A DNA stretch of 62,629 nucleotides, filler included. It is 7 parts of 7 records of this genome, joined end to end, with 100 filler letters (N's around TTAATTAATTAA, not from the genome) between each part and the next. Parts side by side here need not be neighbours in the genome. Positions count along the whole stretch, not along the records: positions 57,002 to 62,629 come from SRR31156797_11746; 6 more parts are not named here. The stretch is one strand, 5' to 3'. The notes beneath the pieces are model-generated. The model was not told the DNA's origin. It made no database searches and was given only the letters and a program-made list of their open reading frames with translations. Both the position numbers and the translations under genes were made by a program. Positions 5,731-62,629 of the stretch are shown here, piece after piece. Position 1 is the stretch's first letter. Each line of letters opens with the position of its first letter.

Positions 5731-5830
5731 NNNNNNNNNNNNNNNNNNNNNNNNNNNNNNNNNNNNNNNNNNNNTTAATTAATTAANNNNNNNNNNNNNN
5801 NNNNNNNNNNNNNNNNNNNNNNNNNNNNNN
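5731..5830. other. Artificial contig linker (N44-TTAATTAATTAA-N44)
   Basis: 100-nt N pad with a 12-mer giving stops in all six frames; composition changes sharply across it. Confidence 0.98.
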
Positions 5831-14788: not shown

Positions 14789-15418
14789 TCAGCGGCTGAA
14801 GGCCACGCCCAGGCTGTTGGTTCTCAGTGATACGTAGTTTCCCTTCAGGGGGGTCTCGTTGCTCAAGGGGAAGGTGTAATATACGCCGGCCTTGAAGGGA
14901 TCGTAGATTTTCGCCATCCCGCTGTTGCCGTCGATGACCAGTTTCACGGGCAGAGTATGGCTCATATACTTGCTCAGCATGGGCTCGAGGGCGCGAAGGG
15001 ATACGCTTTCCACCAGATTCATTCTGGAGTGGCTATTGCTTTTATAGATCTGCGCGCTCAGGCCCTTGGGGGTGGCGCCGACGGGTTTTTCATCATAGTT
15101 GACCCACAGAAGGTAGGAGTCTCCCTCGCCCCAGGCCTTTCCGGCTGCGGGGGTGTCAACGAATACATGGATTCCGAATCCGCCCCGGCCGTCCTGCAGG
15201 CCGTCGATGTACTTGGCGTTGAACTCATAGACCATGGTGTCGTTCTGGGGGACATAGATATTGGCCTTGGCCATTCCCGCGTTCAGGTTGGTCTGACGTA
15301 ATTCAGAGGACGATATCTTCCAGCTTCCATAGGTCGGCTTGACCCGCAGGTCGTCGGCGAAGATGGGAACAGAAAAAATAACTGCGATACAGATGAGTAG
15401 AAATAACAGTTTTTTCAT
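14789..15418 (-). CDS. Hypothetical secreted beta-rich protein
   Basis: Signal peptide MKKLLFLL...IFA; RBS GGAGAG; no recognisable catalytic motif. Confidence 0.7.
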   Translation of the reverse strand: MKKLLFLLICIAVIFSVPIFADDLRVKPTYGSWKISSSELRQTNLNAGMAKANIYVPQNDTMVYEFNAKYIDGLQDGRGGFGIHVFVDTPAAGKAWGEGDSYLLWVNYDEKPVGATPKGLSAQIYKSNSHSRMNLVESVSLRALEPMLSKYMSHTLPVKLVIDGNSGMAKIYDPFKAGVYYTFPLSNETPLKGNYVSLRTNSLGVAFSR

Positions 15419-15551
15419 ATAACTTGTCTCTCCCGGATGAATTAGTTTTTTATTGGAATTTCAGAGTAAACCTGAATTCTCCTGTACACAAGGAAAATAT
15501 CATCAAAAAACGGTGAGAAAAAGAAAAGAAAAAATAAGCGTCCGAACTTTG

Positions 15552-16928
15552 TTACTTTTTGATTTTCCGGTTGTTTATAATAAATTCGGCAGCCTCGGAA
15601 AGGTCCTTTTTTATAACAAGATTCTTGAATTTTCCCGAAGGGAGAGAGGCCTTCGTCTTCTTTCCGTCTCCCGTGAGAACCAGGATGGGACGGACTCTTC
15701 CATTGACGGCGCACTCCAGATCGCCCGGCCTGTCTCCGATCATCCAGCCGTTTTTCCGGGTGAACCCCAAAAGATGAGCGGCCTTGTTGAGCAGTGCAGG
15801 GGAGGGTTTGGTCGAGGATGTATCGCTGAAGTCGGGGTGGACGGCACGGGAACCGGCGCCGCTGCTGAAGTAGATGGCATCGGGCTGGCTGTCGGGATCC
15901 CCTGTTTCATGAGCCAGTAAATAACACATGTACTCGTTATTCAAAAGAACGACAGATTCGGGAACATAGCCCATACCTATGCAGGACTGGTTGGTATTGA
16001 CGATGACGGCGTATCCGGCCTGCTTCAGTCTCTGGATGGCCCGGGCCGATCCGGGGATCAGGCTCATGGCGTGAGGGCCTGTCTCATAGGAGGAGAGGGA
16101 GGAGATGACTCCGTCCCTGTCGAGGAAGACCACGGGCTTGTTCTTCAGAAGGCTCCTTTTCTGTATCTCCAGGCGACGGGTCTCCATATGCGAATGGCCT
16201 TTCAGTTCGTGGATGAGAACGGGATGAGGAGCCGCGCAGAATGCGGGTCCGGATATCCAGGTCGTCTTGTTCTCTTTGTAAGCGGTGATGCCGGGATGGT
16301 AGTGACCCGACAGGGACAGGACGACCTTTCCCGACTCTCTGCAGAGTTTGCGGATGTTTTCGGCCTCCTTGTAGACATGCTTGATCTTGATCTGCTCCGA
16401 GGGGGTGCTCACGAAGTGCTGCAGATGGATCTGGGGCGGGCTGTCGGGATCGCTGAGAACCTTTTCCATCAGCAGGCGCTCCCGGTCGAAGCGCCGGGGC
16501 TGACTGCCGTCCCATTGCCGATCGTGAAAGCAGACGAAGCGGTAACCCTTGATATCCTGTACCGGATCCTGGTCCCCCCATATCTCGGAGAAGAGTTCCG
16601 GCTCGTCCTTGTTGCCAGGAATAACGATCCAGGGGATGCCGGATTTATCCAGATGGGAGCGTATGGTCAGATAATCCTTACGGACCATTTTCTTGAATGG
16701 CTCGGATACGTCCATATAGTAGTTGTTGTGCTTGAGGATGATTCCCGGCGTGTCTACTATGTCCCCGGTGATCACGAGGATGTCGACCTTCTCCTTCTTC
16801 AGCTTCTCCAGGGTTCTGTTCAGGATGACCGGGATCTCCCGGCTGCGGTTCTTATGCTTGTGGGAGGAACCCGGGGTGTGGTAGCGGAAGTGGAGGTCTG
16901 TCAAATGTCCGATTCTGATCTCTCTCAT
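15552..16928 (-). CDS. Calcineurin-like metallophosphoesterase fused to a GmhB/HisB-type HAD-IIIA phosphatase
   Basis: N-terminal half: TDLH, TGDIVD, PGNKD, QHF, SGHYH. C-terminal half: FLDRDGVI, TNQS, TKPSP, WMIGDRPGD, LVLTG. Confidence 0.85.
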   Translation of the reverse strand: MREIRIGHLTDLHFRYHTPGSSHKHKNRSREIPVILNRTLEKLKKEKVDILVITGDIVDTPGIILKHNNYYMDVSEPFKKMVRKDYLTIRSHLDKSGIPWIVIPGNKDEPELFSEIWGDQDPVQDIKGYRFVCFHDRQWDGSQPRRFDRERLLMEKVLSDPDSPPQIHLQHFVSTPSEQIKIKHVYKEAENIRKLCRESGKVVLSLSGHYHPGITAYKENKTTWISGPAFCAAPHPVLIHELKGHSHMETRRLEIQKRSLLKNKPVVFLDRDGVISSLSSYETGPHAMSLIPGSARAIQRLKQAGYAVIVNTNQSCIGMGYVPESVVLLNNEYMCYLLAHETGDPDSQPDAIYFSSGAGSRAVHPDFSDTSSTKPSPALLNKAAHLLGFTRKNGWMIGDRPGDLECAVNGRVRPILVLTGDGKKTKASLPSGKFKNLVIKKDLSEAAEFIINNRKIKK

Positions 16929-16994
16929 AGTCCTACGATTGTAAGTAAAACCGGGCGTTAAGAGAAGATCCCGGCCTACGGAAGTTGAACGATA

Positions 16995-55857: not shown

Positions 55858-56128
55858 ATTCGGTATAAATCTAACGATATAAAAAATCTTCTTTTTAAGC
55901 GTAATTGATAGACTATTCACTATCTTTTATTCGGGAGTAAGGTTATAAGTGGGTGTGCATATGGAGTTAAAAACCTAGAACAGCACCTCCGCCGGATCCT
56001 GCGAACCGGAAGATGAATCTGAGGTTGCCGAGTTTGAGGAGAACTTTATAAAAAATCCCTTCTGCTGGATTTGGTCAACAAAAGGGAATCATATAATTTT
56101 TATCTATTGCGTTATTTTTTTCTCGTCC

Positions 56129-56751
56129 CTAAGCACTTGAACGATAGTAGTGATGGTGCAACTCGGATTATAGCGACAGTTTTTAATATTGCCGGTACAT
56201 TTTTCAATTTCTGCATTGGTGATCTTGCCGATTTCTTGGTGCATGCTCTGATAATTGTAATACTTCACAAAATAAGTAACAATTTTCCTAGCCTGCTTCT
56301 CGGAAAATAGGAGGAAATGATCCAAAACCTCTCTGCGAATAGTGCCGACAAGTCTTTCTACATAGACATTCATTTTGGTGTATACGAATAGATATTAACA
56401 CTTTCTATTTCGTACCAGCTGTTAATCAATTGAGGTAAATTGAGCTGCGTTGTCATAAATCAGAGTTTTCTTCTACTCCTCTAATTCATCTGAAAAAAGC
56501 TCAATTCTTTGCTATGCAAATTCCCTGCAAGGATTTTCAGTTATATCAAACCGGACAATCTTCCGAGTTTTCAATTCCATGATCAAAAGAAGATAGATTC
56601 TCTTCCCAAACAGAGTGTCGACGGTCATAAAATCCATCGCATAGAGTGAATCCCAGTGCATTTTCAGAAAGCTCTTCCAAGAACTATTCGGTTGAATGAC
56701 TCCTTTCTTTCTGAAATTTTTGATTATCTTGTTTGCCGTTGTGTAGTGAAT
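56129..56751 (-). pseudogene. Decayed integrase-core transposase, copy B (5'-truncated, inverted relative to copy A)
   Basis: IHYTTANKII, WKSFLKMHWDSLYAMDFMTVDTLFGKR, LIYDNAAQF and MNVYVERLVGTIRREVLDHF; its 3' end (TCAAGTGCTTA...AAAAAAATAACG) matches copy A. Confidence 0.85.
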
Positions 56752-56901
56752 ATTGTCTTTATAGATTCAACCGATACTCTGGCGAAAGCTACTGTTAATA
56801 AATATTTGTCAGACTGAATACTATAGTAAGAGAATGAAGTGATTCTCCGCTCCCAGAAAGCAACGTTAGATCTAAAATGCTATTAAAGGAGCGAGATATC
56901 A

Positions 56902-57001: not shown

Positions 57002-58023
57002 GGTGCGTGCCCTATTATTACAGGGATTTCCGTTTCGGCGGGGCATTGAGCATCGGGTTTGCCTCCTGCTTCCCAGGCTTGTATGGCGGCGCCTTCTATA
57101 ACCCGGTCCCTTAATAGAGGCCTTGCTTCCACACCAAGGGCGCGGCTCAATTGTGAAAGGAAAAACTGGTTTGGCGGCGGCGGGCTGATAGCCGCCACAG
57201 TAGGAGGCGAGTCTTCGGACGGAACCAGGCGACGGACTGCGCCAAGGGCCGGGGCGAATGTTTTTTCAAACACTTCGGCGACATGATCGGCGGACAGCCT
57301 GTCGCTGTAAAACCCCAGCCTTTTTGCATCCGGAACGATAAAATTCCGACCCGGCGACCATTCTTCCCGGATTTGTCTGACCGCGGCCAGCATATAATCA
57401 AGCTGGAGCAATGAAGAAGCCGGCGGCCGGCCGCCCTGCAGTGCGTTGAGCAGCCGATAATCAAGCGGATCCAGACCGCAATTTTCCAACACCTCCAGGT
57501 TTTCCAGGCTTAGGGATTGCCCCGCGGCCACGTACCAGGATATATCGACGCTGCGATACCTGACATTGAACAAAAGCAACCTGTCCGCGGCGGTCAAATC
57601 CGGGCAGGCCTTGAGCACGGCCTTGTCTTCGTTGAAAAGCTGGACATCATAACCTAATTCCTGAATTATGTTCCTCAGGCCGACCCTGTCCCGCTGGCCA
57701 AGGGAAGAAGCCACAGACGCCTGAATCCCGCTTATTCCACGATTAAGCAGGGCCGAGGCTTTTTCTATGGCTGACAATATAATCTTCCGGGTGACGTCCC
57801 TGGGAATCAGCTTATAATTTCCATTCGACGTCGGGATATCGAATTCCTTGTCTGAAAGCCAGTTGGAAATGCTCCACCGCCTTACCAGGCCGTCCCTCGA
57901 TTGTTCGTACATGACGGGCAGCCTGGCGTCAACCAGGGTCCTGGCAGTGTGATCGCAAAAGGCGGCTGCCTTGCATCCGGTTGATGAAACTTCGAGCCCG
58001 ACGCCGATTTCAGTTTGAGTCAT
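57002..58023 (-). CDS. Highly diverged Hsp70/actin-fold protein with degenerate nucleotide-binding motifs, 3'-truncated
   Basis: Motif vestiges in the correct order: VGLEVSSTGCKAA (cf. IGIDLGTTNSVV), LLLFNVRYRSVDIS (cf. ILVFDLGGGTFDVS), CGLDPLDYRL (cf. LGGDDFDRVI) and VIEGAAIQA (cf. VALGAAIQA). Confidence 0.6.
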
Positions 58024-58041
58024 TTTTTTTCAGGCGTTCCT

Positions 58042-60336
58042 TTATTTTTTACCCAGCAGCGTCTTGATGTCGGCCGGACCCGTCCCGGTCCTGGTCGTCT
58101 CATCAAGAGCTTCCCCGAGAATTTTCTTGAATTCCGCGTAGGAAGATTTGAACACGTCGAGGTCCATGCGGTCGATGCTGTTGAGCAGTTCGTGCTTGAC
58201 CTGTTCGAGCCTGGTGGTAAGGGCCGGGTTGAGCGTGGAGTCATTGGCCAGCATGGTGGCGATAACCAGGTCTCCAACCAGGGGAACGTCAAAAAGAAGC
58301 TTCTTGCCTTCTTCAACCAGACCAGGGCCGGCCAGATCGTCGTTTCTATCCAGGGCCCTTTGGGTTCTTTCGCACCAGTCGTCGAAATCAATGACATTCT
58401 GGTCGTCCGAGGGCAGCACGGCCCGGACGCGGTCCAGGTTGCTCTTACCGAGATTCATTATATTCTGTGCAGGCACCCGCCATTCATCTCCGGCCGCCTT
58501 GTCGTCGGACGAATCAATCTGTTCGATTTCCTGGGCTTCCTGAACCCGCTTAAGCTCCTGGAGGTGTTGCTTGGCCGTAGTGCGATCGCCCTGTTCGACA
58601 GCCTGTTCCAGGCCGCGTACGTGTTTATCCATTTCATCGGCGTCATGTCCTGTTATGCCTTTACGCCGAAGATCAGTGTGGGCGGTCATGGCTTCATCCA
58701 ACACGTCATTCTGCCACCCGCCGTGGTTAAGGATCATTTCCCTGGACCAGTCCGTTCCCTGGATGCGGCAGCCTATGGTGAAGATCATATCTCCATCCAG
58801 GGCCATGGACACTTCAATGGCCTTGCCTTCCGGCAGGCCGGGCGGGAGGTCGTAGAACCAGATGTTTCCCATCAAGTCGTTCTCGGAGGCTGTTTCTGAA
58901 AAGCCCTCGCGAACCGGGACTTTTATGAAGCACTGATCCTGCATGGTCGTATTGAAGACCTCTATGTGAGGCTCATCCATCGGGTAGGGCTCATTTTTAG
59001 GGATGATCTCCACGAATCGGTCGCCCTCGACTTCGATGCCGTAAGGCTTGGGGGTCCGGTCGGTTTCTTCGACGATCTTGGTAGCCTTGAGGGCCAGGTC
59101 GGCGCCGCATTTTTCGCATTTTTCATTATCCATGGCGTTTTCTTGGTCGCATTCCTGGCACCAGACATGGATGAGGCTTTTGGCCAGAACGCCGGCGCCC
59201 AGGGCCACGCAGGTCATGGGATCAATGTTGCGCATGATCTTTTCCTTGTCAAAATAGTCTTCCAGGGTTTTTTGAAACTTGGGAATTGTGGAAGACCCTC
59301 CGACCAGCAGAACAGCGTCGATCTCGTCTTTTTCCAGGCCGGCCGCGTCCAGGGCCTGTTTTACGCAATCAAGGGCCCTTTCGGCATGAGGCTGCACCAG
59401 ACGCTCGAATTCAGCCCGGGATATTTCGTATTCCACCGGTACGGGCATGCCGGTTTCGTCCTTGAGGGATTCCATGATGATTACTTCAGCGGAATCCTGT
59501 GATGAGAGTATTTCCTTTGCTTCCCTGGCCTTTTTTCTGAGATCGTGCATGAACTCTTCACTTTGGCTTACGTCTTCCAATTCATACTCGTTCTCAACAC
59601 TGTGGATGACCTGGTCCATGATTACGCGGTCGAAATCGTCTCCGCCCAGCCACATATCGCCTTCATTATTCATTTTCTGGAAGTTGCCGCCGACAATAAA
59701 TAAAATGGACACATCAAAAGTGCCGCCGCCCAGGTCGAAGACAAGTATCATCTGGCCGTCGTCATTTTTACTGTCCAGGCCGTAGGCAATGGCCGCGGCC
59801 GTGGGCTCGTCAATAATCTTTTTTACTTTGAGGCCGGCCATCAATCCGGCTTCCCTGGTGGCGTGCTTTTGCCTTTCGGAAAAATAGGCGGGAACGGTAA
59901 TAACCGCGGAATCCACCGTGTCGCCGAGCCACTGTTCGGCGTCTTCCTTGATCTTTTTGAGGACCATGGCCGAAACGCCCTGGGGAGTGTAAAGCTCACC
60001 GCCCAGGCGCACCCGGACCACGTCCTCATCGCCCTCTGGAGACGGGAGGATTTCATAGGTGACCTTGGCGGCGACCTTTTTTACTTCATCATCCTCAAAA
60101 CCGCGTCCCATCAGACGTTTGACCGAGAAAATATAGTCTTTCCTGGCCGCCTTGGCGTAGTCGTTGGCGTTTTTACCCACGACAATTGAATCGCCGGTTT
60201 TTTTCGATCGTTTGAAGGCGACCACCGAAGGCGTCAGACGGTCGTGTTCGCGGTTCAATATAATTTCAGGCTCCGTGGTCATGTGGCATACAACGGAGTT
60301 GGTAGTTCCCAGATCAATGCCTATGCTTTTGGCCAT
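58042..60336 (-). CDS. Hsp70/DnaK-family protein (non-housekeeping) with zinc ribbon at the interdomain linker and an extended helical C-terminus
   Basis: IGIDLGTTNS, SVKRLMG, TVPAYF, IIDEPTAAA, VFDLGGGTFDVS and LVGGSS are intact; CQEC-x10-CEKC follows the NBD; the SBD is divergent; RBS AAGGAGGAG. Confidence 0.92.
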   Translation of the reverse strand: MAKSIGIDLGTTNSVVCHMTTEPEIILNREHDRLTPSVVAFKRSKKTGDSIVVGKNANDYAKAARKDYIFSVKRLMGRGFEDDEVKKVAAKVTYEILPSPEGDEDVVRVRLGGELYTPQGVSAMVLKKIKEDAEQWLGDTVDSAVITVPAYFSERQKHATREAGLMAGLKVKKIIDEPTAAAIAYGLDSKNDDGQMILVFDLGGGTFDVSILFIVGGNFQKMNNEGDMWLGGDDFDRVIMDQVIHSVENEYELEDVSQSEEFMHDLRKKAREAKEILSSQDSAEVIIMESLKDETGMPVPVEYEISRAEFERLVQPHAERALDCVKQALDAAGLEKDEIDAVLLVGGSSTIPKFQKTLEDYFDKEKIMRNIDPMTCVALGAGVLAKSLIHVWCQECDQENAMDNEKCEKCGADLALKATKIVEETDRTPKPYGIEVEGDRFVEIIPKNEPYPMDEPHIEVFNTTMQDQCFIKVPVREGFSETASENDLMGNIWFYDLPPGLPEGKAIEVSMALDGDMIFTIGCRIQGTDWSREMILNHGGWQNDVLDEAMTAHTDLRRKGITGHDADEMDKHVRGLEQAVEQGDRTTAKQHLQELKRVQEAQEIEQIDSSDDKAAGDEWRVPAQNIMNLGKSNLDRVRAVLPSDDQNVIDFDDWCERTQRALDRNDDLAGPGLVEEGKKLLFDVPLVGDLVIATMLANDSTLNPALTTRLEQVKHELLNSIDRMDLDVFKSSYAEFKKILGEALDETTRTGTGPADIKTLLGKK

Positions 60337-60350
60337 TTAATAGCTCCTCC

Positions 60351-60872
60351 TTAATCTTCGTCTTCTTCGGAAACATCTTCAGTTGACGAAGCCACAAGGA
60401 CCTCGGCCGGGCGAAGAATGTGATCTTTCCAGTAATATCCTGTTTTTTCCACTCGGGCCACATGCCCTTCAGGCAGGTCGGGGTCGTAAACCGTGCCCAC
60501 CGCTTTTTGAAGTCCGGCCACGAATTCACCGTTTCCCACTTCCATCGGGGTGACGCCGAACTTTTTAATAACTCCGGCAAACTGCTTTCTTAAAAGGCTG
60601 AAATTTTTCAAAACCCTTTTGGCTTTTTTATCTTCAGCGGAAAGGGCCTGTTCGATGCCGGCTATGGTTTTGTCAAAACTGTCGATTGAATCTATCAGCG
60701 CCAGCAGGAAATCATGAATTTCCCTTTCCGTTTCGGCCTTTTGTTTTCTGGCGTCAATTCGCAACTTATGGATTTCGCGAAGCTTTTCAACGTATTGTTC
60801 ACGCCAGAGGGCGACGACCTCGGCGAATGGCGCTAAAGCTTGCGCATCATTAACCCCGGGGTCACCCTGCAT
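60351..60872 (-). CDS. grpE: Nucleotide exchange factor GrpE, atypical
   Basis: LIDSIDSFD, KKFGVTPM and GYYWKDHILRPAEVLV. Start ATG 60872 (RBS AAGAGG) overlaps the upstream stop. Confidence 0.85.
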   Translation of the reverse strand: MQGDPGVNDAQALAPFAEVVALWREQYVEKLREIHKLRIDARKQKAETEREIHDFLLALIDSIDSFDKTIAGIEQALSAEDKKAKRVLKNFSLLRKQFAGVIKKFGVTPMEVGNGEFVAGLQKAVGTVYDPDLPEGHVARVEKTGYYWKDHILRPAEVLVASSTEDVSEEDED

Positions 60873-62628
60873 GATCGGCCTCTTGATCCGCGAATTGCGC
60901 GGCAGCATAGATGCCGGCGCCCATTGCTTCGCATTTTTCCAGTTTTAGGCTTCCCATTACCTTGCGGTCGCCAAGCATTTCTTTCACACTTGGAGTTTTA
61001 ATTCTGTTTTTTACGCCGAATTTCTTTTCCAGGGCTTTACGGAAAAGAAAATCAACGCCCGGATCCAATACCGGTAATATCAGGTCTATGTCGGATCTGT
61101 TCATGTTCGCGGATTTAAGCACCCGATTAACAATCTTCATGATTTGAGATACAAGGGGATCAGTAACGCTTTCCACTTCGTCCCTTGTAAGCTCATAGTC
61201 GAAAGGCGCCGGCGTCCCGTCATCGTCGAGCAGAGAATCCTTAATTAATATTTCACACGACTCTTGTCCGGATAATAACTCCATTGCCTCTTTAGTTTTT
61301 ACGGTCAGGTCGGAGATAAAATTATTATTTGAAGCAGGATCAGGGACTCCGGTTTCGACTTCGGTCCGGCTGACCAGGTAATCTACAACTGTTGCACGGA
61401 AATCGTCCGCACCGGCAAATTGATCTCCATCAAGGGCGATAATGCTATATGTCTCCCGACTATAATGCAGAATTGAAAACTCGGCGCACCTCGGACCCAT
61501 TTTAAAGACAAGCATTACAATATCGTTTTCCAGTTCTGCTTTATCTATTCCAAGAGAAGCCGCCGCGGCTATAGGGGAGTCGATAATTTTGAGCACTTCA
61601 AGTCCGGCCCGGCCGGCGGCGTCCAATACGGCCTTTTTTTGTTTTTCGGTAAAATAGGGCGATGTTGTAATAACCGCCTTTCCGAATACCGATCCGAAAT
61701 TCGACTCAGCGTCTTTCTTGAGTTTTTGAAGGACTAATGTCAGCAATTGGCCGGGTGTATAAATGTCGTCGCCGAGGCGGACGCAGGCGGCGTCGCCGGC
61801 TTTACCGGCCGGAACATTCCGGTCGATTTTTTCGGCCTTTTTCTTTTCCTTGATTTTTTTAAGGGCCCGCCCCAGTGATTTGCGTTGCGCCTGGACATCG
61901 TTCCCTTGTTCTTCCACACTGCCGGGACTTTCGGAACAAGGAACTATTTCAAAGGAGACTTTTTCGGAAAGCCTTTCCACAACCGGGTCATCGAATGAAC
62001 GTCCCAAAAGGTCCATAATATAATAAATACGGTTCTTACCGGCCCGGGAAGAAAAATCACGAGCCTGTTTCCCTACGAGTATATTATCCCCGCTTTTTTT
62101 TGATTGTTTGAGGACGATTTCAATCGGCGTAAAGTCTTCGCCTTCCCGGTTGAGTATTATTTCAGGTTCATCGCCAGGCAGGCACATAACCGCATCGGAC
62201 TCGCCCAGGCTGATAGCCAAAACCGGATATTTAATATCTGTTTTTACGGCAACGGCAATGGGTTCCTGCGGAAGCAACAATTCCGGATCCGGTTTATAGC
62301 CTTCCCGATACGGCGCCTGGCCCAGGTCGTCAACTTCAAGGTTGGGCCGCAGATTATCCGGAAAGCCGAGATCGGACAGCATGGCCGGGTTTTCCAGGAG
62401 GCGGCAATAAACATTATTGCTCTCTTCCGGTATACTGCCGCGAAGGTGGGCAAGGTCCAGTTCCGGCTGATCTACTTCCAGGCACATGGCGTCTTCCACC
62501 ATGCGCTGAGCCGGCTGGGTCAGCCTGTGCTGGGCCTTGTTGCCTTTATCCATCATGGCCTTGTCGCGCTTGAATTTAACCATGTGAGCCATCATGGCCT
62601 TGTTGACCGCTTTTTTATCAACATCGAA
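60862..62628 (-). CDS. Degenerate J-domain fused to catalytically dead Hsp70 ATPase domain, 5'-truncated by the window end
   Basis: Frame is open to the window end (FDVDKKAVNKAMMAHMVKFKRDK...GNKAQHRLTQPAQRMVED, J-domain-like). The remainder is colinear with the neighbouring Hsp70 NBD (EPEIILNRE is identical), with the catalytic motifs substituted. Confidence 0.75.
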   Translation of the reverse strand, partial: FDVDKKAVNKAMMAHMVKFKRDKAMMDKGNKAQHRLTQPAQRMVEDAMCLEVDQPELDLAHLRGSIPEESNNVYCRLLENPAMLSDLGFPDNLRPNLEVDDLGQAPYREGYKPDPELLLPQEPIAVAVKTDIKYPVLAISLGESDAVMCLPGDEPEIILNREGEDFTPIEIVLKQSKKSGDNILVGKQARDFSSRAGKNRIYYIMDLLGRSFDDPVVERLSEKVSFEIVPCSESPGSVEEQGNDVQAQRKSLGRALKKIKEKKKAEKIDRNVPAGKAGDAACVRLGDDIYTPGQLLTLVLQKLKKDAESNFGSVFGKAVITTSPYFTEKQKKAVLDAAGRAGLEVLKIIDSPIAAAASLGIDKAELENDIVMLVFKMGPRCAEFSILHYSRETYSIIALDGDQFAGADDFRATVVDYLVSRTEVETGVPDPASNNNFISDLTVKTKEAMELLSGQESCEILIKDSLLDDDGTPAPFDYELTRDEVESVTDPLVSQIMKIVNRVLKSANMNRSDIDLILPVLDPGVDFLFRKALEKKFGVKNRIKTPSVKEMLGDRKVMGSLKLEKCEAMGAGIYAAAQFADQEADHAG

Positions 62629-62629
62629 A

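Follow-up and report, generated by a model that had tools for sequence, protein, structure and literature searches.

The last piece of the DNA window analysed here (the whole stretch of 62,629 nt) is occupied along its entire length (57003-62629; 5.6 kb) by a four-gene Hsp70 cassette from a sulfate-reducer-type bacterium. Taken together, the data make it probable that this cassette forms the chaperone core of an uncommon operon of Desulfobacterota, encoding a dedicated, non-housekeeping Hsp70 machine for which we propose that pseudo-ATPases, Hsp70 domains devoid of catalytic motifs, act as adaptors. The cassette encodes an Hsp70 with a zinc ribbon (p2), a GrpE of its own and two proteins with degenerate Hsp70 nucleotide-binding domains (NBDs), p1 and p4. 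On sequence comparisons, p1 emerges as a conserved component of a small protein family, and the fusion of a J-like domain to an NBD seen in p4 is predicted to be lineage-specific.

All four open reading frames (ORFs) lie on the minus strand: p4 (60862-62628), GrpE (60351-60908), p2 (58042-60336) and p1 (57005-58023). The p4 and GrpE reading frames overlap, GrpE and p2 are separated by 14 nt carrying a GGAGG ribosome-binding site, and p2 and p1 by 18 nt; because of these short gaps and the overlap, we read the four genes as translationally coupled. The GrpE start is more likely to be the ATG at 60872, which yields a 173-aa protein, has AAGAGG upstream and overlaps the p4 stop by 11 nt; the GrpEs of the relatives described below measure 168-171 aa. 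Within the piece, neither promoter-like sites (5, against 4.0 expected from shuffled sequences) nor terminator-like sites (8, against 8.1) are in excess, and the predicted layout fits a single transcription unit cut at both ends. At the contig ends p4 is missing 22 N-terminal and p1 161 C-terminal residues, the full forms from a near-identical strain being P0023 (610 aa) and P0001 (500 aa), respectively. The window joins seven contig pieces through six linkers (N-run/TTAATTAATTAA/N-run); joined pieces need not be neighbours in the genome, and no other gene of the window is a true neighbour of the cassette. The predicted features of the cassette, in the order of transcription, are the following:

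62284..62629, minus strand: N-terminal part of p4, a J-like domain lacking the HPD tripeptide, with a conserved extension; truncated at the contig end.
60865..62220, minus strand: C-terminal part of p4, a degenerate Hsp70 NBD (P0023 residues ~159-610) with no substrate-binding domain.
60351..60872, minus strand: nucleotide exchange factor of the GrpE type, 173 aa when started at the ATG at 60872 (frame open from 60908), identified by Pfam GrpE.
59176..60336, minus strand: NBD of p2 (aa 1-387), matching Pfam HSP70, with all catalytic motifs kept.
59092..59169, minus strand: zinc ribbon of p2 (aa 390-415), CxxC-x10-CxxC, at the place of the DVLLLD linker of DnaK.
58717..59055, minus strand: substrate-binding beta domain of p2 (aa ~428-540), placed by PF00012 positions 390-560 in relatives and by strands of an AlphaFold2 (AF2) model.
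58045..58716, minus strand: helical C-terminal domain of p2 (aa 541-764), nine helices, placed by the AF2 model and family alignments.
57003..58023, minus strand: pseudo-Hsp70 NBD of p1 (aa 1-335), identified by fold and profile homology, cut by the contig end.

To compare catalytic motifs, the cassette proteins were aligned against E. coli DnaK, HscA and HscC, and positions are given in E. coli DnaK numbering. Active Hsp70 ATPases are marked by D8, K70, E171, D194, a GGG phosphate loop and a GG adenosine motif. The 764-aa p2 (Pfam HSP70 match of 1e-123 over the NBD, MreB_Mbl match of 2.5e-25) retains every catalytic and nucleotide-binding motif (GIDLGTTNS, K70, E171, DLGGGTFD and VGGSSTIP), the sole family-wide motif change being IIDEP in place of IINEP, and it is the only subunit predicted to be able to hydrolyse ATP. 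At the site of the DVLLLD linker, the alignment with DnaK reveals a CxxC..CxxC ribbon followed by a polar connector, KIVEETDRTPKPYGIE, and no hydrophobic linker. The four ribbon cysteines (C393, C396, C407 and C410) are invariant in 17/17 family members, and zinc-ribbon and double-zinc-ribbon (DZR) Pfam matches are present in p2 relatives. The AF2 model of p2, with a predicted local distance difference test (pLDDT) score of 78, is composed of an NBD, the zinc ribbon, a substrate-binding beta domain (SBD-beta) and nine helices, and aligns with the structures of full-length DnaK and BiP (E 1.9e-44). The SBD-beta is dense in invariant columns and modelled at pLDDT ~85-92, and p2 relatives align to PF00012 positions 390-560. 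Furthermore, the C-terminus of the family presents a conserved D-(I/V)-K-x-L-L-G-(K/R) motif (window 58045-58075), which, by analogy with eukaryotic EEVD-TPR pairs, could be a docking peptide for TPR partners.

A housekeeping DnaK identity for p2 was considered and ruled out by its sub-cut-off scores, the missing DVLLLD linker and its separate clade in the NBD tree. The protein falls under every NCBIfam DnaK/HscA equivalog cut-off, reaching, through an NBD match only, 415 bits for NF001413 (cut-off 648) and 394 for TIGR02350 (cut-off 822) among the DnaK equivalogs. In the NBD tree (54 rows, quick search), which sampled 12 of the 19 p2-family clusters plus one relative locus (L003) and left out the p1 family as too divergent, the p2 family and p4 define a clade with a Shimodaira-Hasegawa-like approximate likelihood-ratio (SH-aLRT) support of 99, apart from DnaK, HscA and HscC. 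The p2 protein lies outside the E. coli HscC group, HscC itself being on a long branch (1.81), and the row labelled 'G001_DnaK' in this first tree is the longest ORF of L011 and not the gene (branch 10). Canonical DnaK is encoded separately in one relative's genome (G002; 913 bits), and DnaK-type matches are found on other contigs of a second (G001).

The p1 protein presents no Pfam, NCBIfam or PADLOC match, and its relationship to Hsp70 emerges from structural and profile comparisons. The AF2 model of P0001, computed from a 7-sequence alignment, has a pLDDT of 82.5 and six helices at residues 375-500; all Foldseek matches listed for the p1 model are Hsp70/DnaK NBD structures, from E 2.5e-16, and the first of them is an Hsp70-NBD/Hip-TPR fusion. 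Searched against 1.84 billion representatives, a p1 profile gathers 12 full-length members, the family extending to identities as low as 20%, along with 2 fragments; ordinary Hsp70s come next, with E-values of 1e-9 or weaker (6/6 tested carry PF00012, one of them an NBD-TPR protein). Alignment of the p1 and p2 families with hhalign yields a probability of 77% (E 2e-5, 250 columns), and the nearest p1 cluster in a language-model Atlas is Hsp70+TPR (0.96). The reading of p1 as a predicted Hsp70 NBD plus a TPR-like tail is supported by these comparisons. A pattern search of genome contigs for further members of the p1 family gave 166 matches, of which 0 were confirmed. At the catalytic positions p1 shows D8E, a deleted K70 segment, D194N, GGG changed to RYR and GG changed to SP.

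In p4, residues 1-137 of the full-length P0023 share 32-43% identity with free-standing proteins of 140-158 aa encoded just upstream of GrpE in three relative loci (L005, L002 and L003). A profile of this J-like family (4 sequences) recovers J domains in 19/20 PDB matches (best E 0.0017), the twentieth being a histidinol dehydrogenase. The HPD tripeptide, which J domains carry between helices II and III (at position 33 in DnaJ and 32 in HscB), is absent throughout from P0023 and from the three free J-like proteins; in its place the alignment shows FKR in the window protein and xPR or GKN in relatives. When compared to Pfam DnaJ (PF00226), the L003 J-like protein scores 18.6 bits versus a gathering score of 27.8, and P0023 gives no match. 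These alignments suggest that the N-terminus of p4 is homologous to J domains, without their HPD. We also considered a charge swap between the J-like domain and Hsp70, pairing the arginine at the position of the HPD aspartate with IIDEP, and rejected it, since the position of DnaK R167 stays K/R in the p2 rows.

The remainder of p4 is an NBD only, without a substrate-binding domain, that matches Pfam HSP70 at 1.2e-53 and MreB_Mbl at 5.8e-5 and has undergone the changes D8S, K70M, E171S, D194K, GGG to GPR and GG to LD. The motif losses of p1 and p4 argue against canonical nucleotide binding by either protein. A Lys-rich low-complexity insert is found in the p4 NBD (window 61740-61900, P0023 ~255-300), and 7 of the 27 amino-acid changes between strains map to residues 283-294. 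Because the J-like protein is free-standing in 3/3 relative loci with upstream sequence, the J-like::NBD fusion is predicted to be private to the lineage of the window. Among the p4 matches listed from 5.8 billion proteins, P0023, from the near-identical strain, is the only close one; the others listed are 23-36% identical, all carry PF00012 and, where named, are called DnaK or Hsp70.

The second gene of the cassette encodes a protein matching Pfam GrpE (PF01025) at 2.9e-24 (86.1 bits, against a gathering score of 25.8) that remains under the cut-off of all 20 NCBIfam GrpE equivalogs (best 53 versus 194). By these profile scores it is a GrpE-family protein, not a housekeeping equivalog. It is 46-52% identical to the GrpEs of L002, L005 and L003, and carries FVAGLQKA where E. 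coli GrpE has LDPNVHQA, the pattern F(V/I)xGL(H/Q)K being common to 4/4 GrpEs of the cassette family.

An initial annotation of this DNA had described four tightly coupled minus-strand genes, truncated at both ends and encoding a GrpE with a divergent motif together with three Hsp70-fold proteins, of which only the product of 58042-60336 kept the catalytic motifs. The 14- and 18-nt gaps and the p4/GrpE overlap, the 22 and 161 missing residues, the FVAGLQKA segment and the motif alignment, with p1 recognised by fold and profile, bear out this description. Its dead J-NBD fusion holds as regards the dead NBD; the J part is only J-like, with no HPD and a Pfam DnaJ score below threshold. The specialised, non-housekeeping Hsp70 it had proposed agrees with scores below the equivalog cut-offs, with a canonical DnaK (G002) or DnaK-type matches (G001) also being found in the genomes of the two relatives searched, and with the placement of the 58042-60336 product outside DnaK, HscA and HscC in the phylogeny.

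The family delimited by the C-terminal domain of p2 is rare, with 19 clusters in a set of 5.8 billion proteins, and is carried by three GTDB metagenome-assembled genomes (MAGs; labelled Deltaproteobacteria, Desulfobacterales and Desulfopila) and two JGI contigs. In L002 and L003 the cassette genes are embedded in a longer array, which reads Ser/Thr kinase-TPR protein, transmembrane (TM)-TPR protein (980-1151 aa, ~four TM helices), ~645-aa TPR protein, J-like protein, GrpE, zinc-ribbon Hsp70, p1-like protein and a zinc-ribbon-TPR-LysM protein with one TM segment, followed by an FHA protein or others. A J-like gene and then GrpE precede the Hsp70 gene in 3/3 loci with upstream sequence, the ~645-aa TPR protein lies upstream of the J-like gene in 3/3 loci, and the kinase-TPR gene and the TM-TPR giant are found further upstream in 2/2 loci with at least 8 kb of upstream sequence. 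Directly 3' of the Hsp70 gene, a p1-like gene is present in 4/5 loci with downstream sequence (L001, L002, L003 and L004), and the zinc-ribbon-TPR-LysM gene follows in L002 and L003; downstream of the Hsp70 gene in L005 there is a zinc-ribbon ORF homologous to the N-terminus of the LysM protein. On this conserved gene order, the cassette is the predicted core of a larger TPR/kinase/LysM operon in Desulfobacterota relatives. Zinc ribbons are found not only in p2 but also in the LysM protein and in a kinase-FGE protein encoded nearby, a hint that the three may share a docking element.

A related arrangement is found in sister loci (L007-L009), where a kinase-TPR gene, two TPR genes, a ~150-aa ORF, GrpE and Hsp70 are followed by a partly degenerate NBD at the position of p1. 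In L006-L009 this NBD protein shows D194G and E171D and keeps the GG motif, and further NBD paralogs are present, one of them fused to a kinase; the main Hsp70 of L007 has a DZR Pfam match. The metagenomic locus L007 (1-19249) contains nine Hsp70-NBD paralogs in a row around GrpE, including two NBD-only proteins (~420-440 aa), a 1131-aa Hsp70-TPR protein and a 985-aa NBD::Ser/Thr kinase. Beside the operon in L002, on the opposite strand (15231-16946, minus strand), lies a gene for a protein combining a zinc ribbon, a Ser/Thr kinase and an FGE-sulfatase-like domain, and in L003 (41-1246) an FtsH-like AAA+/peptidase M41 ORF, its N-terminus cut by the end of the locus, sits directly upstream of the kinase-TPR gene.

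Full-length matches to the p2 C-terminal profile occur in 1/401 genomes sampled from the phylum of G001, namely G001 itself. The profile matches 341/401 genomes at E <= 1e-10, and the matches shown outside G001 reach ~50-66 bits, are partial and fall nearly all on SBD-beta; we rejected these as family members and took them as ordinary DnaKs. Of 151 genomes searched with the J-like profile, G001 is likewise the only one with a strong match; two weak matches (7e-5 and 1e-4) were also obtained.

Elsewhere in the window, the linkers lie at 5775, 14668, 20379, 30628, 51536 and 56946. The G+C content, taken in 2-kb bins, varies between 0.26 and 0.57, and the source bin may mix organisms. The end of the sixth piece (56104-56880) harbours an 89-aa ORF (56104-56373, minus strand) and broken frames that, judged by eye, look like a transposase/integrase remnant.

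To assess selection on the degenerate genes, we compared a Logan contig of run X1 (16,792 bp), which contains the entire cassette piece unchanged and may be where it comes from, with its counterpart from run X2 (16,846 bp). X2 differs from the piece by 132 substitutions over 5627 bases, with no indels; 40 of the 132 differences were listed individually, so that the p4 ratio of non-synonymous to synonymous changes (pN/pS) is a bound and the p2 synonymous count a minimum. In p1, 9 synonymous and 2 non-synonymous changes (0.6% of residues) correspond to a pN/pS of 0.07, and in p2 at least 29 synonymous and 1 non-synonymous change (E81D; 0.1% of residues) to a pN/pS of ~0.01. In p4, 27/588 residues have changed, all at or past residue 123 and none in the J-like part, and pN/pS is bounded at about 0.12-0.4. 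These ratios indicate that p1 and p4 are probably both maintained by purifying selection and are not decaying. The clade uniting p4 with the p2 family suggests in turn that the p4 NBD derives from the p2 lineage. When p4 was constrained to group with the window p2 and its closest relative P0005, the log-likelihood was 5.43 higher, and the approximately unbiased (AU) test, from which rows 'G001_DnaK', P0157, L007_482 and L009_487 were left out, did not reject the grouping (p 0.683). A recent event in which the lineage duplicated its own NBD to give that of p4 is therefore compatible with these data.

Several proposals of the initial annotation bear on this wider context. The self-contained machine it had envisaged does not hold, as relatives show a longer TPR/kinase/LysM operon, and the anti-phage role it had raised finds in PADLOC nothing beyond generic kinase, AAA and NBD domain matches. 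Conserved synteny of the degenerate genes was observed for p1 (4/5 loci) and not for the p4 fusion, the J-like protein being free in 3/3 loci, and pN/pS values (0.07 for p1, ~0.12-0.4 for p4) speak against neutrality of either gene. Of the neighbours it had proposed to look for, TPR and kinase genes were recovered, and no recognisable effector lies within 10 kb in L002/L003.

In the canonical DnaK-DnaJ system, HPD and the interdomain linker are the two halves of the ATPase trigger. Because p2 has no DVLLLD linker and the J-like domain no HPD, we infer that ATPase control in the cassette is different. In the mechanism that we propose, the canonical path from J domain to linker to ATPase would be replaced, and the J-like domain and the two pseudo-NBDs would be non-catalytic adaptors or regulators docking on p2 through contacts between NBDs, like those of the Hsp110-Hsp70 and Ssz1-Ssb pairs, or through a TPR that binds the conserved C-terminal tail of p2. 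These adaptors would tie p2 to the TPR scaffolds of the operon, and p2 would cycle on a specific client, most likely the operon's own membrane TPR/Ser/Thr-kinase/LysM complex seen in relatives, to be reset by GrpE. The module, in which the pseudo-ATPases may play the part of scaffold, sensor or regulator, would thereby work at the cell envelope as a switch for assembly, remodelling or signalling and not as a general folding machine. A more elaborate version of this scheme, which we regard as doubtful, is that the cassette embodies an independent bacterial pseudo-Hsp70 layer resembling the ribosome-associated complex (RAC) or Hsp110: p4 and p1 would dock on the linker-less ribbon Hsp70 in place of the HPD-to-linker trigger, and Ser/Thr-kinase/FHA signalling at a peptidoglycan-anchored TPR scaffold would switch the ATP cycle on a single client.

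Several observations weigh against the interpretation of the cassette as a dedicated machine with pseudo-ATPase adaptors. Residues change faster in p4 (4.6%) than in p2 (0.1%) or p1 (0.6%), which could reflect relaxed constraint instead of an established function; the pN/pS of p4 is given as limits only, and its branch in the quick-search tree is long (1.79). The p1 protein keeps an acidic residue at the D8 position and the N-E of IINEP, and may on those residues retain some nucleotide or metal binding; moreover, L005 has no p1, indicating that p1 is not indispensable to the module. The TPR/kinase/LysM context is taken from relatives 48-55% identical in p2 and not from the window's own flanks, and the interaction among p1, p2 and p4 is a proposal drawn by analogy.

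The closest printed description to the cassette, in the sections consulted of a survey of GAP1-N2 GTPase-centric conflict systems, is a theme in which an HSP70 and a GrpE are accompanied by another protein made up of an HSP70 domain alone (Kaur, Burroughs, Iyer, Aravind, eLife 2020, PMC7159879). As portrayed in those sections, the two share a GrpE of their own, an NBD-only second Hsp70 and DnaJ/TPR partners, with protein kinases in related themes. This resemblance, with its DnaJ- and TPR-fused partners, is one argument for a rival explanation in which the cassette belongs to an NTP-dependent conflict system of the anti-phage or abortive-infection type, Hsp70, GrpE and the NBD-only Hsp70 setting the threshold of an effector, TPR proteins acting as sensors and kinase/FHA proteins as regulators. 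The rarity and patchiness of the family (19 clusters in 5.8 billion proteins; 1/401 and 1/151 genomes), the Ser/Thr kinases, FHA protein and weak TPR-S (sensor TPR) match in the neighbourhoods and the fast divergence of p4 between strains also speak for such a system. However, no recognisable nuclease, TIR, pore-former or caspase-like effector domain was found within 10 kb in L002/L003, where peptidase domains are limited to the M41 domain of the truncated FtsH-like ORF at the L003 edge, and no GAP1-N2 GTPase or FNIII Pfam match occurs among the genes in that range. PADLOC-DB 2.0 has no match for p1, p4, GrpE or the J-like, TPR and LysM proteins, and its remaining matches are generic: kinases (PD-T4-6), AAA (IetA) and, weakly, the p2 NBD (PDC-M61B, 4.3e-6). 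In addition, the components with LysM and TM segments point to a function at the envelope. The survey's sections also place the GAP1-N2 theme mainly in Actinobacteria and Firmicutes (PMC7159879), whereas the relatives of the cassette are Desulfobacterota MAGs; unlike the theme, the cassette has a ribbon in place of the linker, an HPD-less J-like domain and catalytically dead NBD-only partners. We consider a conflict system unlikely.

Two further explanations reassign the NBD-only proteins. They might be actin-like polymerising or scaffolding proteins of a cytoskeletal or membrane apparatus, with p2, GrpE and the J-like protein merely assembling or disassembling the structure. The Hsp70 NBD does share the actin/MreB fold, MreB_Mbl matches p2 (2.5e-25) and p4 (5.8e-5), up to nine NBD paralogs stand in a row at sister loci, and relatives provide membrane TPR and LysM partners; yet p1 and p4 are devoid of the nucleotide-binding motifs that actin-like filaments normally need, and p1 finds its best structural matches among Hsp70 NBDs and not among MreB, ParM or FtsA, which leaves this explanation with little probability. 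Still harder to credit is the view that p1 and p4 are functionless, decaying duplicates beside an ordinary specialised Hsp70/GrpE pair. Their catalytic motifs are gone, p4 has a single close relative in 5.8 billion proteins, from a near-identical strain, and it accumulates amino-acid changes much faster than p2. Against decay, two strains both keep uninterrupted frames of 500 and 610 codons and none of their 132 differences is an indel, pN/pS is 0.07 for p1 and at most ~0.4 for p4, the p1 family comprises 12 full-length representative clusters with its gene position kept, and the J-like part of p4 is identical between strains.

Under the preferred interpretation of a dedicated Hsp70 machine with pseudo-ATPase adaptors, parallels can be drawn with several known systems. 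Like the cassette, E. coli HscC is a specialised Hsp70 paralog, separate from DnaK, encoded beside genes for dedicated J-type co-chaperones (DjlB/DjlC) and TPR-like Sel1-repeat proteins (YbeQ/YbeT). The biochemistry of HscC with DjlB/DjlC was reportedly addressed by Kluck et al. in 2002. Unlike the cassette, the annotated stretch around hscC has no GrpE, and the HscC system has neither a zinc ribbon nor a pseudo-NBD gene. Mitochondrial Pam16 is a J-like protein with no HPD that, together with a true J partner, Pam18, regulates an Hsp70 motor or serves as its adaptor and does not trigger the ATPase. The cassette resembles it in its HPD-less J-like domain; Pam16, for its part, is a eukaryotic protein that pairs with a true J protein and carries no fused NBD.

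In eukaryotes, atypical Hsp70s regulate Hsp70s through NBD-to-NBD contacts, as seen, in the sections consulted of a recent article, for Zuo1 (J) and Ssz1 (atypical Hsp70) on Ssb and for Hsp110 on Hsp70 (FEBS J 2026, PMC13580251). The cassette, like Zuo1-Ssz1, combines a J-type part with a non-canonical Hsp70, and p4 joins both in one polypeptide. The Zuo1-Ssz1 and Hsp110 systems are eukaryotic, the likeness being functional and not one of shared descent, and no ribosome link is seen at the cassette. Zuo1 keeps its HPD, and Ssz1 and Hsp110 still bind nucleotide. The cassette differs from all three in a J-like domain without HPD and in p1 and p4 without nucleotide-binding motifs. Among bacteria, passages of two papers describe Myxococcota 'DnaK derivates', a 'dark matter' of unknown function with altered or missing linkers and substrate-binding domains (SBDs) and with extra domains, encoded beside bona fide DnaK (FEBS J 2026, PMC13580251; mSphere 2021, PMC8265645). 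As with these derivates, going by the same passages, several NBD proteins with altered linker or SBD coexist with DnaK in the organisms studied here; those papers list proteins and not a cassette operon, and a term look-up found no linker zinc ribbon in their main texts. A literature search recovered no description of the cassette operon. To these systems, the present analysis adds pseudo-NBD partners, a ribbon inside an Hsp70 and a J-like::NBD fusion.

The cassette would thus offer a compact and explicit bacterial case in which an intact ribbon Hsp70 is accompanied by a private GrpE, an HPD-less J-like partner and two pseudo-ATPase copies that appear to be under selection, one of which, p4, may have been caught as a recent duplication and fusion. 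With four or five small soluble proteins, it provides a setting in which to ask how an Hsp70 is controlled without the HPD/linker trigger. It also raises the questions of what role dead Hsp70 domains play in bacteria, and of whether atypical-Hsp70 co-chaperones like Ssz1 and Hsp110 may have had more than one origin.

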